Assembly (NCBI GenBank): GCA_042217695.1
Contig: JBDGSE010000030.1
Span: 1 to 46,598, forward strand
Direction of reading: 5' to 3'
DNA length: 46,598 nucleotides
From: Candidatus Nanohaloarchaea archaeon
GTDB lineage: Archaea; Nanohalarchaeota; Nanosalinia; Nanosalinales; Nanosalinaceae
Below the pieces are notes generated by a model. That model saw only the letters and a list, made by a program, of their open reading frames with translations. It was not told the origin of the DNA and searched no databases. A program made the translations under genes and the position numbers. Below are positions 19,780-22,018 of the stretch, piece by piece. Positions within the stretch are counted from its first letter, which is position 1. Each line of letters starts with the position of its first letter.

Positions 19780-20994
19780 TTAACGGAGATGCCGCTCCAG
19801 TTCTTCCTCTTCCACCTCCCTGGTGTCGCCGGAGCGGTCCTCGAGTTCTATCTCGCCGGTCTCCAGGTAGCGGTTGCCTATCACGAGCTTTCTCCCTATC
19901 CCCAGGAGGTCGGACTCGGCGAACTGTTCCCCCACCGACATCTGGTCGTAGAGCAGCACGTCGAACTCCCCGGAAAGCCTGTCGTAGAGCTGTTCCGCTT
20001 TCTCTCTAGCGCGGTCCTCGTGCCGGGCCACGACTATGGATACCTCAAAGGCGGATACCTCCTGATTCCAGGTTATCCCCCGGGAATCATGGTTCTGCTC
20101 TATGATGGCCGCGATAAGCCGGGTGACTCCTATACCGTAGGAGGCCATCAGGACGTTCTCCTGTTCGCCGTCCGCGGTGGCAAAATCCAGGTCCATGGCC
20201 TCGCTGTAACGCGTGCCGAGTTCGAACAGGTGGCCTATCTCTATGCCACTGACCTCTTCAAGCTCTGAACCGCAGGACTCGCAACGGGAGGCTTCGAGCT
20301 CCCTGGTGCCGTACTCACACCTCCTGCATTTCATGTAGCTGTCGCTCCCGGCTTCCGATTCCGCCAGGAACTCGTGTGAACGGGATCCTCCCATCGAGCC
20401 GTTGTCCGCCTCCACGACCGAGTAATCCAGCCCCAGCCTGTCGAAGATGTTTCTGTAGACGGAGAGGAATTCGTCGTACTTTTCCCTCAGCGAGTCCCTG
20501 TCTTCGTGGAAGCTGTATGCATCCTTCATCAGGAACTCTTTCGTCCTTAAAAGGCCTTTCCTGGCGCGGTCGTCCCGGAACTTCTTCCCTATCTGGTAGA
20601 AGACCAGGTCCAGGTCGCGATAGGAACGGATGTAGTCCCTGGCGAGTTCCACCGCGGCCTCTTCATGGGTCGCTGCTATCGTGAACTGTTTTCCGTCCCT
20701 GTTCTCCAGGTGGAAGAACTCATCGCCCTCGAAGTTCTTCCAGCGACCGCTCTTCCGCCATATATCGCTGTTCTGCAGCACGTTCATCCTGACCTCCTGC
20801 GCGATGTCATCGATCTCTTCATGTATGACGGACTCGATGTTTTCCAGGACGCGGTGGCCCATGTGGGAGAACGCAAACGTGCCGGAGCCGTAGCTGTGGA
20901 CCAGCCCGGCGCGGAGCGCAAGCTCCTCGCTTTTACAGCTCGTGTCGGCCCGGGACTGCTTGGACGAGGTCACGAACAGCTCGCTGCGCCTCAC
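19780..20994 (-). CDS. proS: Proline--tRNA ligase, bacterial type, no INS editing domain, proline-free sequence
   Basis: W..SGRW, THEE, SYRDL, YQI..KFRD...GLLR..EF.MKDAYSFH, GIEIGH.F.LG..YS, YGIGVTR, anticodon-binding domain; GTG start with GAGGTG SD. Confidence 0.95.
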   Translation of the reverse strand: MRRSELFVTSSKQSRADTSCKSEELALRAGLVHSYGSGTFAFSHMGHRVLENIESVIHEEIDDIAQEVRMNVLQNSDIWRKSGRWKNFEGDEFFHLENRDGKQFTIAATHEEAAVELARDYIRSYRDLDLVFYQIGKKFRDDRARKGLLRTKEFLMKDAYSFHEDRDSLREKYDEFLSVYRNIFDRLGLDYSVVEADNGSMGGSRSHEFLAESEAGSDSYMKCRRCEYGTRELEASRCESCGSELEEVSGIEIGHLFELGTRYSEAMDLDFATADGEQENVLMASYGIGVTRLIAAIIEQNHDSRGITWNQEVSAFEVSIVVARHEDRAREKAEQLYDRLSGEFDVLLYDQMSVGEQFAESDLLGIGRKLVIGNRYLETGEIELEDRSGDTREVEEEELERHLR

Positions 20995-21270
20995 CCGAAG
21001 ACACCTCGACGAGTTCTAGAAAGGTTTTGCGTTGTTTGCAAAAGCTCCGTGATGTGGTACGCCCTCTTTTGAAACGCATCCTTCTCCGAAGAGAAGGTGT
21101 GCTCAAACTGTAACCTGTGCAGGGTACAGCGGAACGCGCCCACCTCTAGCTGTCGAATCCATAGAAATCACATCGATATGCCAACGGCTCATCAAACTGT
21201 CAAGTTCATATACGCGGAACACATTCACCGTCAAGCATAGATTAAATAATTAGTTACGCTGATACTTAAA
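20995..21270 (-). promoter_or_regulatory. proS promoter and ~245-nt structured 5' leader with uORFs
   Basis: TTTAAGTA at 21270-21263; uORFs 21238-21206, 21209-21192 and 21192-21103; C(UUCG)G hairpin 21097-21080; SD 21007-21002. Confidence 0.65.
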
Positions 21271-21353
21271 ACTTGTCATACATCCAAGACCCTCCAGAGA
21301 GTTCAATCCAGATGAACAGCTTGGTGCACGGGTTCAAGCTACGGAACTCCTTC

Positions 21354-21458
21354 TTACCCAGGGTGCCGCCTCCCGATCAGCTCAGCGGTTTTACCGGAGA
21401 ACATGCACCCGATCACGACCGCGCAGGAAAAACTGTGGAAGACGCCAGGCCCGAACAC
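21354..21458 (-). pseudogene. tdk: Thymidine kinase N-terminal remnant
   Basis: Manual translation ...AVVIGCMFSGKTAELIGRRHPG* matches the TK1 P-loop G.MFSGKT.EL; stop follows. Confidence 0.7.
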
Positions 21459-21484
21459 CTTAATTTACCGGCCTTGACGTGAAG

Positions 21485-21570
21485 CGTCGGGGGCGGGATT
21501 TGAACCCGCGTGGGCTTATCGCCCAGTAGCTTAGCAAGCTACCGCAATGACCAGGCTATGCGACCCCGAC
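21485..21570 (-). tRNA. tRNA-Ser(GCU)
   Basis: Acceptor GTCGGGG/CCCCGAC, anticodon arm GTAGC-TTGCTAA-GCTAC, long variable arm TGGGC-GATAA-GCCCA, T arm GCGGG-TTCAAAT-CCCGC. Confidence 0.97.
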
Positions 21571-21607
21571 ACGGTTACAGGTTGTCAGGCAAAAGTTTAA
21601 AATCTGC

Positions 21608-22018
21608 TCAGCTGTACCGGATCCCGGACAGCGTGTATCTGGCTTTCACCAGAGGTATCTTCAGCAGAAACCCTATAGTGGAGCGGTTGCTTTCCATGAA
21701 CGCTTCCTCCAGGGCGTCCTCGTGCCGGTTCCTGTAGTCGGTGTAGAGCGAGAGAGCCTCTTCCTTGGTGCAGCCCTCTTTTTTTTCTTCGCGGTCGCTC
21801 CTTATCTCTTCCTCCAGATCTTTCCTGTCGTCTATGAATTCTTCAGCGGTTATTTCTCCGTTCTGGTATGCTTCGGCCAGCTCGTTGAGCTCTTCCGATA
21901 CCTGGCTCCACTCTGAAGAAGTTATACGGCCTGTGCGTAGAAGAAGTATTACCAGGCGCTGTTCAGTCCTCATATAGGAGTCGACAAATCCTTTCACTAT
22001 TCTCTCTCGCAGTCTCAT
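21608..22018 (-). CDS. Hypothetical helical protein
   Basis: 136-aa ORF, SHOCT-like LAEAYQNGEITAEEF. Confidence 0.7.
   Translation of the reverse strand: MRLRERIVKGFVDSYMRTEQRLVILLLRTGRITSSEWSQVSEELNELAEAYQNGEITAEEFIDDRKDLEEEIRSDREEKKEGCTKEEALSLYTDYRNRHEDALEEAFMESNRSTIGFLLKIPLVKARYTLSGIRYS

Follow-up and report, generated by a model that had tools for sequence, protein, structure and literature searches.

Leader-peptide attenuators of the his, trp and pheM type read charged tRNA through cognate codons in a short leader. The T-box riboswitch uses one scaffold with a swappable specifier codon to control synthetase and biosynthesis genes for many amino acids. In Salmonella, the short mgtL leader senses charged tRNA via cognate codons, as parts of PMC12856214 describe. 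Frame changes are also put to regulatory use. According to sections of PMC5009743, prfB undergoes a +1 shift at CUU_U with a Shine-Dalgarno (SD) sequence 3 nt upstream, and slow A-site codons favor +1 shifts; the same sections describe how, in the telithromycin-induced frameshift of the ermC leader and in the pheL frameshift, a change of frame within the leader ORF lets ribosomes run on and activates the downstream gene. In Haloferax, PMC6728339 reports strict coupling for nine of nine gene pairs, with no de novo SD initiation.

Here we describe the leader of a second prolyl-tRNA synthetase (ProRS) gene in a nanohaloarchaeon. The window, the whole 46,598-nt stretch of DNA analyzed, is contig C24 of a 757-kb MAG, and all features given below by position lie on its minus strand. 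Judging from the sequence, the leader is very probably a sensor of Pro-tRNA that controls a proline-free proS. We consider it distinctly probable that it works as a tandem +1 programmed-frameshift sensor of Pro-tRNA shortage, with its output passed on by translational coupling.

Such a device would resemble prfB, as outlined in sections of PMC5009743, in having an internal SD-like motif just upstream of a slippery P-site codon, a slow A-site, a +1 shift and feedback on a translation component. Unlike in prfB, the A-site codon would be a sense codon that senses aminoacyl-tRNA rather than a stop codon, the site is in a uORF and not in the regulated gene, the output would be coupling and not a fusion, the copies are in tandem, the SD spacing is 4 nt instead of 3 and the host is an archaeon. 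Neither ermC nor pheL has a conserved cassette with a swappable cognate codon. Compared with leader-peptide attenuators, each uORF has a single cognate codon in a fixed place, the shifted frame is conserved, and no terminator was found. Compared with the T-box, the codon would be read by the ribosome, and the leader has no Rfam T-box match.

Results

A second prolyl-tRNA synthetase without proline

The gene at 20994-19780 is a second ProRS gene of the bacterial type. It encodes a short form of 404 residues whose TIGR00409 score, 404 bits, is above the cut-off of 306.7, and charging of tRNA-Pro is its predicted activity. The canonical archaeal ProRS is encoded on contig C2 of the same genome. 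A previous reading of the window, made from its letters alone (the sequence-only reading), had called the product proline-free; there are indeed 0 prolines in 404 residues. It is the only proline-free member of a filtered set of 367 ORFs (200 aa or longer; mean proline content 3.8%).

This property belongs to a clade. Among the 120 homologues listed, 71 are of the proline-free type, with 8 prolines in 27,468 residues and none at all in 64 of the 71. The remaining 49, haloarchaeal bacterial-type ProRS among them, have a mean of 13.6 prolines. In the clade, replacements are found at sites that are proline in 72–100% of bacterial-type relatives, including the motif-1 proline, which is changed to Asn or His. 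The class II motifs are kept: THEE, FRD, KDAYSF and YGIG align with solved ProRS. Across 70 genomes of the phylum, a match at E 1e-20 was found in 14 and canonical ProRS in 57. A ProRS without proline could be made during proline shortage.

The enzyme resembles the INS-less bacterial-type ProRS of R. palustris (PDB 2i4l), a TIGR00409 member with a class II core, an anticodon-binding domain and no editing insertion. It differs from that enzyme in being purged of all proline and in co-existing with a canonical archaeal ProRS. A duplicated synthetase is also known in Streptomyces, where ProRSx mistranslates Ala codons according to parts of PMC9437257; nothing at the proline-free ProRS hints at similar behavior.

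Several loci are noted for their arrangement. In L107, L112 and L114, the canonical proS follows the proline-free one in the same orientation, within about 2 kb. Two copies with near-identical leaders (L001 and L002) are present in one MAG, and a single base has cost one of them the exact start overlap described below. Locus L006, from a record titled Colwellia polaris, is nanohaloarchaeal and has a leader identical to that of L088; the record is probably mislabeled.

The promoter and uORFs of the leader

A TATA box, TTTAAGTA, is located at 21270-21263, and 24 nt separate it from the ATG at 21238. The sequence-only reading had paired this box with a leaderless start, and the pairing stands: with a matrix derived from 99 promoter-like sites in this genome, whose median score is 10.9, the box reaches 13.5, and its spacing to the ATG falls in the genome-wide peak of -31 to -27. 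Based on the position of the box, the transcript probably starts leaderless at this ATG. Inside the window leader, the best rival TATA box scores only 3.3. An internal promoter beside the proS start was considered and rejected for the window, with the score of 3.3; scores of 8.3–9.5 in two homologues mean that a weak second promoter is possible in those two. A tRNA-Ser(GCT) gene lies at 21570-21484, about 210 nt upstream of the leader promoter.

The first ORF, the leaderless uORF-A (21238-21206), encodes MLDGECVPRI. The motif M-x-G-[DEG]-x-[VI]-P is present in 13 of 14 leaders compared, and the fourteenth has an assembly gap there. Within uORF-A, cassette A (21229-21215) consists of an SD-like GGTGA, the P-site codon GTT at 21220-21218 and the Pro codon CCG at 21217-21215. 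uORF-B (21162-21103) encodes MDSTARGGRVPLYPAQVTV, with GTGATTTCTATG nearly invariant and an SD-like GTGAT at 21171-21167. Its cassette B (21144-21130), made up of GGTGG, the P-site codon GTT at 21135-21133 and the Pro codon CCG at 21132-21130, can fold into a 6-bp hairpin. Both cassettes show codon-level constraint (GGT, NTT, never CCC). A +1 linker (21219-21163) is open, proline-free and in the frame of uORF-B, the frame as a whole extending from 21219 to 21103. The +1 frame of cassette B (21134-20991) contains 47 proline-free codons, and its TGA overlaps the GTG of proS as GTGA. The SD-like GAGGTG of proS is at 21007-21002; the genome-wide SD peak is -14 to -11.

The sequence-only reading had arranged this region as three coupled uORFs with three Pro codons. 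All letters of the chain are present, including its ATGA and TGATG overlaps, but it amounts to no more than chance. Nor is it conserved: only 4 of 13 leaders have a start codon over the uORF1 stop, an ORF overlapping that stop in the uORF-B frame occurs in none of the leaders, and the full chain is confined to the window. The short uORF2 (21209-21192), encoding MNLTV, is unconserved and probably incidental. The third uORF had been started at ATG 21192 (29 codons to 21103), for which few leaders have an in-frame counterpart, whereas the SD and ATG at 21171-21160 are nearly invariant; the true start is most likely ATG 21162. The Pro codons CCG, CCG and CCT are all there, the two CCG in fixed conserved cassettes and the CCT unconserved. 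The placing of the two CCG codons and the layout of reading frames around them go beyond chance. At homologous proline-free proS genes, where the same reading had proposed to look for conservation, the leader and two Pro codons are kept but uORF2 and the third Pro codon are not.

Past the uORF-B stop, in the uORF-B frame, a degenerate third V-P motif lies at 21066-21055. It is also seen in L005, L221 and L276, is not accompanied by GGTG and is perhaps a relic of duplication.

Conservation of the cassette and its +1 frame

We compared 14 distinct leaders of the proline-free gene (proS2), dropping seven duplicate loci and four without an N-terminus. These were chosen by position only, and the canonical proS leaders and blind loci described below by nucleotide pattern. 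Because the leaders are related, the counts are not independent. Within the short uORFs of each of the 14 is the conserved unit GGT GRN YNY NTT CCD, which joins an SD-like motif, a slippery P-site codon and one Pro codon. There is one conserved Pro per uORF, with no tandem cognate codons. The GGTGR motif is 4 nt from the P-site codon and matches the SD motif of the genome; the 16S 3' end was not found in this assembly.

The reading frames follow a single layout. Cassettes A and B are spaced 1 mod 3 apart in 12 of 12 two-cassette leaders, at six different lengths and with the +1 frame open. A further leader carries three cassettes, each shifted +1 relative to the one before it, and the middle unit has no ATG; another shows a single cassette beside an assembly gap. 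In 14 of 14 leaders the +1 frame opened by the final cassette is proline-free, and in 13 it ends as NTGA over the start codon, at 12 different lengths of 60–297 nt. In the exception, L001, the +1 stop comes 9 nt too early. L288 departs from the layout in that its cassette A +1 frame ends as ATGA on the uORF-B start rather than fusing with uORF-B. The shifted paths of the 14 leaders contain 0 Pro in 1009 codons, where about 54 would be expected from C content; at the other two offsets, CC occurs 34 and 84 times.

Constraint extends to the choice of codon. A search at the peptide level gave 49 motifs, from which two far upstream in neighboring genes were dropped. Of the 47 Pro cassettes left, which include those of pattern-picked canonical proS leaders, 45 have GGT, 46 have NTT in the P-site and none has CCC, against baselines in proS genes of 19% for GGT, 20% for GTT and 12% for CCC. 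After a slip, CCC would yield Pro again.

The sequence-only reading had ribosomes stall at leader prolines to control proS, as in mgtL. Sensing of Pro-tRNA is backed by conservation, the TATA box and the proline-gene context. The plain stall is unsupported, because it predicts neither a +1 frame change at each Pro codon nor a proline-free shifted frame that ends on the start.

In L229, L224 and L288, the +1 frame of cassette B holds a proline-free acidic ORF of about 70 aa, with 41% identity between two copies and no Met in that of L224. No Pfam or Atlas match was found for it.

RNA structure of the leader

In hairpin P1, the first ~12 nt of the mRNA (21238-21227) pair with a strand in the linker (21188-21178). 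Across 15 leaders, 88.7% of cells are paired, with 20 two-sided changes; this is reached by 0 of 500 shuffles, and slid controls give 23–53%. In the window alone, the stability of P1 is not above that of shuffles (z 0.73). P1 and the cassette B hairpin both conceal an SD-like motif, and P1 may have a role in the leader. The UUCG-loop hairpin that had been pointed out after the third uORF is present at 21097-21080, 3' of the uORF-B stop (z -4.15), and several homologues have hairpins of other sequence at this place. We found no intrinsic or U-tail terminator in the leader. An Rfam scan of 20800-21700, with E up to 10, returned the tRNA and one chance match only, and a T-box or other known RNA was rejected as a candidate. 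Long-range sequestering of the proS SD, spotted by eye, was also rejected, as the pairing is not above shuffles.

These data allow the stall to be considered in a fuller form, in which a paused ribosome, its frame unchanged, switches the RNA between P1 and pairing of the proS SD, or blocks termination. In its favor, covariation shows P1 to be conserved, there are hairpins beyond the uORF-B stop, and with the 5' end blocked the 3' strand of P1 is able to pair with the SD of proS in about half of the leaders. Against this, the mean modeled pairing of the proS SD is 0.63–0.65 at every ribosome position, no terminator of the bacterial type is seen, and frame conservation, the NTGA overlaps and the proline-free +1 path are not predicted. 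We regard attenuation by stalling alone as quite unlikely.

The cassette ahead of other proline genes

The two-cassette pattern occurs in 11 of 70 genomes of the phylum and 0 times in the control. In two genomes a proC-proB fusion is located behind the leader, and these are the only proB-bearing genomes of the 70; the +1 frame ends as GTGA on the start in L226 and is broken by an assembly gap in L221. Canonical proS has a cassette within 450 nt at 11 of 56 loci, where about 2 are expected for the loose pattern used, and the +1 stop is at -15 to +5 in all 11. Four loci led by nif3 carry a Pro cassette whose +1 frame stops at +1 or +5, and three of them continue to proS. Of 15 extra pattern matches, about ten have the look of chance matches, whereas the ones ahead of nif3 or at the end of a contig fit. 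The nif3 (DUF34) product at L261, L281, L303 and L304, where the gene heads proS operons right behind the Pro cassette, has itself 0–2 Pro in about 250 aa.

In another DPANN phylum, the strict pattern was found in 1 of 401 genomes, ahead of a ProB-like gene. ProB-like matches occur in 39 genomes there; 30 loci were retrieved and 28 examined, of which 7 have a related uORF. Two of these seven leaders end the +1 frame at the start and five end it 43–127 nt upstream. The ProB-like proteins score below the proB cut-off. A narrow proS pattern gave no match in 301 genomes of this phylum, the pattern being too narrow to inform. In five leaders of this phylum (L336, L337, L341, L343 and L345), the +1 frame encodes the peptide K-x-G-C-S-L-x(4)-P, which is conserved through synonymous changes and lies at five different distances. 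At L338:1235-1489, a 79-codon +1 frame crosses a tRNA-Pro-like sequence (seen by eye; no ARAGORN call) and ends 7 nt before a ProB-like gene, which is followed by proS.

A metagenome scan yielded 1 close locus among 80 kept, and a scan of viral sequences for a close locus none. In viral contigs the two-cassette pattern matched 14 loci, mostly repeats and none with 1 mod 3 spacing. A related strain spans 20950-21279 in contigs of three DNA runs from one study.

Archaeal termination of the FttA/aCPSF1 type is the basis for a different view of the output. The frameshift would be real, and shifted ribosomes would cover the leader and prevent polar termination, perhaps together with coupling. This would suit the scatter of the +1 stop from -15 to +11 in canonical proS and other leaders, the U-rich stretches ahead of many starts and the five other-phylum leaders whose +1 frame ends well before the start. 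The NTGA overlap in 13 of 14 proS2 leaders, on the other hand, is tighter than coverage alone requires, and a part of PMC6728339 reports that coupling in Haloferax tolerates a 10-nt gap. A transcriptional output is very unlikely in our estimate.

Codon-swapped cassettes ahead of other genes

We scanned the genome of the window with the A-site codon left free. Cassettes with the cognate codon were found before thrS, hisS, leuS, serS and tyrS, and two more before an operon with trpS as its last gene; other matches look like chance. In a survey of 30 thrS loci, of which 28 have upstream DNA, a cassette is present at 20 of 28; the A-site codon is a Thr codon in 20 of 20, and the +1 stop falls between -3 and +10. 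Of the leuS loci, 1 of 30 has a cognate cassette, and 3 distant matches are non-cognate.

With a pattern cut off ahead of the P-site, we obtained 123 matches in 55 of 70 genomes, compared with 15 control matches. Leaving out 4 loci of our own genome, 31 beside thrS, 2 for Pro and 6 others gave a blind set of 80 loci, for 74 of which the genes were run against NCBIfam. Where the gene behind was recognized as a synthetase or biosynthesis gene, the A-site codon is cognate in 63 of 63 cases (serS 26, glyS 15, tyrS 11, cysS 3, hisS 2, valS 2, and trpS, hisD, leuA and ilvA; some second in order), and in 20000 label shuffles at most 29 matches were cognate. As for the remainder, one locus lies inside a long frame before sucC, no family was assigned to 10 at E 1e-28, and the other 6 lie outside the 74. 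In 61 of the 63 leaders the +1 frame is the longest, and in 61 of 63 cassettes the P-site codon is TTT or GTT. Shifted frames of amino acids other than Pro are depleted of their own amino acid, not free of it (Ser 46 versus 117 expected, Thr 13 versus 48, Gly 19 versus 28); depletion is not seen for Leu, Ile or Trp, each represented by one leader. That the arrangement is a relic or a chance product with no function is extremely improbable: uORF2 and the third Pro codon are incidental, but this leaves the 63 of 63 codon-gene matches, the 20 of 20 Thr codons and the 123 matches against 15 in the control.

Some shifted frames are long enough to encode proteins. Two Trp cassettes at L351 (G000 C8:3100-1) precede the operon ending in trpS, and the +1 frame of the second is an acetyltransferase-like ORF of 230 codons whose first ATG comes no earlier than codon ~100, so that its product may depend entirely on frameshifting; a similar ORF precedes trpS at L482. 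The +1 frame of a His leader (L349, G000 C29:2771-4453) encodes an AbrB-like domain and ends as ATGA on hisS. Elsewhere, His leaders (L435, L445, L449 and L459) precede similar AbrB-like ORFs and genes without identity. Leu cassettes at L450 and L456 precede genes with no NCBIfam family at E 1e-28, which are candidates for leucine-related functions.

The P-site codon and the next base

The P-site codon covaries with the first base of the A-site codon. GTT is present in 47 of 52 cassettes and TTT in none when this base is C, and GTT in 0 of 38 when it is A or G. Over all 134 cassettes, GTT stands ahead of C, and TTT or CTT ahead of A and G; one cassette outside the tally, at L459, has TTT ahead of C. 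This covariation is what re-pairing of the P-site tRNA in the +1 frame would predict. Re-pairing from GTT to TTC covers only two of three positions, and some sites re-pair weakly: GTC CCT (L090), GAT CAC (before hisS) and GCG TCT (L461).

The same output could arise by restart instead of a slip, and this is the main rival. A stalled ribosome would drop its short peptidyl-tRNA and reinitiate at the GTG inside GGTG, a +1 start 8 nt upstream of the P-site codon. That GTG is invariant, and first-codon variants retain NTG in the +1 frame (TGT GAC in L005, GAT GAG in L276, CTG and TTG in two other-phylum leaders); reinitiation is common in haloarchaea according to parts of PMC6728339. Restart leaves the slippery P-site codon and its covariation with the next base unexplained. 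There is no SD upstream of the internal GTG, and the variants also keep SD-like pairing (GGAGATGA in L276). Restart is in our view unlikely, and we infer that the ribosome slips.

Discussion

The proposed mechanism can be followed through the window. The ribosome would begin leaderless at ATG 21238. When Pro-tRNA is ample, it would read GTT CCG and stop at 21206, and proS would not be reached. With a hungry Pro codon in the A-site, the SD-like GGTGR inside the cassette would pair with 16S rRNA while the peptidyl-tRNA re-pairs from GTT to TTC. The slipped ribosome would then cross the proline-free linker into uORF-B and meet the same test at cassette B. After a second slip, it would translate 47 proline-free codons, terminate at the TGA on the proS start and presumably reinitiate there. 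Two serial gates should sharpen the response. If strict coupling of the Haloferax type extends to nanohaloarchaea, as we infer, cassette A would be a true gate for uORF-B; conversely, the conserved SD and ATG of uORF-B itself could allow cassette A to be bypassed.

The locus is best read as one member of a phylum-wide module in which the A-site codon names the amino acid of the following gene. More broadly, it is reasonably likely that in nanohaloarchaea, and with variations in at least one further DPANN phylum, an amino-acid regulon is built on codon-programmable +1 frameshift uORFs. Each would measure the charging of one tRNA and hand the ribosome to a synthetase or biosynthesis gene, as a functional counterpart of the T-box; stacked cassettes would sharpen the response, some genes without a start of their own would be expressed only as trans-frame products, and the proline rescue enzyme would have been purged of its own amino acid. 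We could not place the module in any described family. In Creative Commons PMC and bioRxiv, to which our search was confined, we found no prior description of such a leader or module by title or abstract opening, and no work on archaeal synthetase levels matched to tRNA charging by this route; given that scope, the negative is no proof of absence.

If this reading is true, hungry-codon frameshifting, which is usually deemed an error, serves as a general programmable sensor, and internal anti-SD pairing acts during archaeal elongation. A 15-nt cassette with one swappable codon can be tested directly in Haloferax and would make a compact biosensor for any aminoacyl-tRNA. The locus would also be an example of regulation in archaea that are reduced and depend on a host, and its ProRS fold is stripped of every proline.
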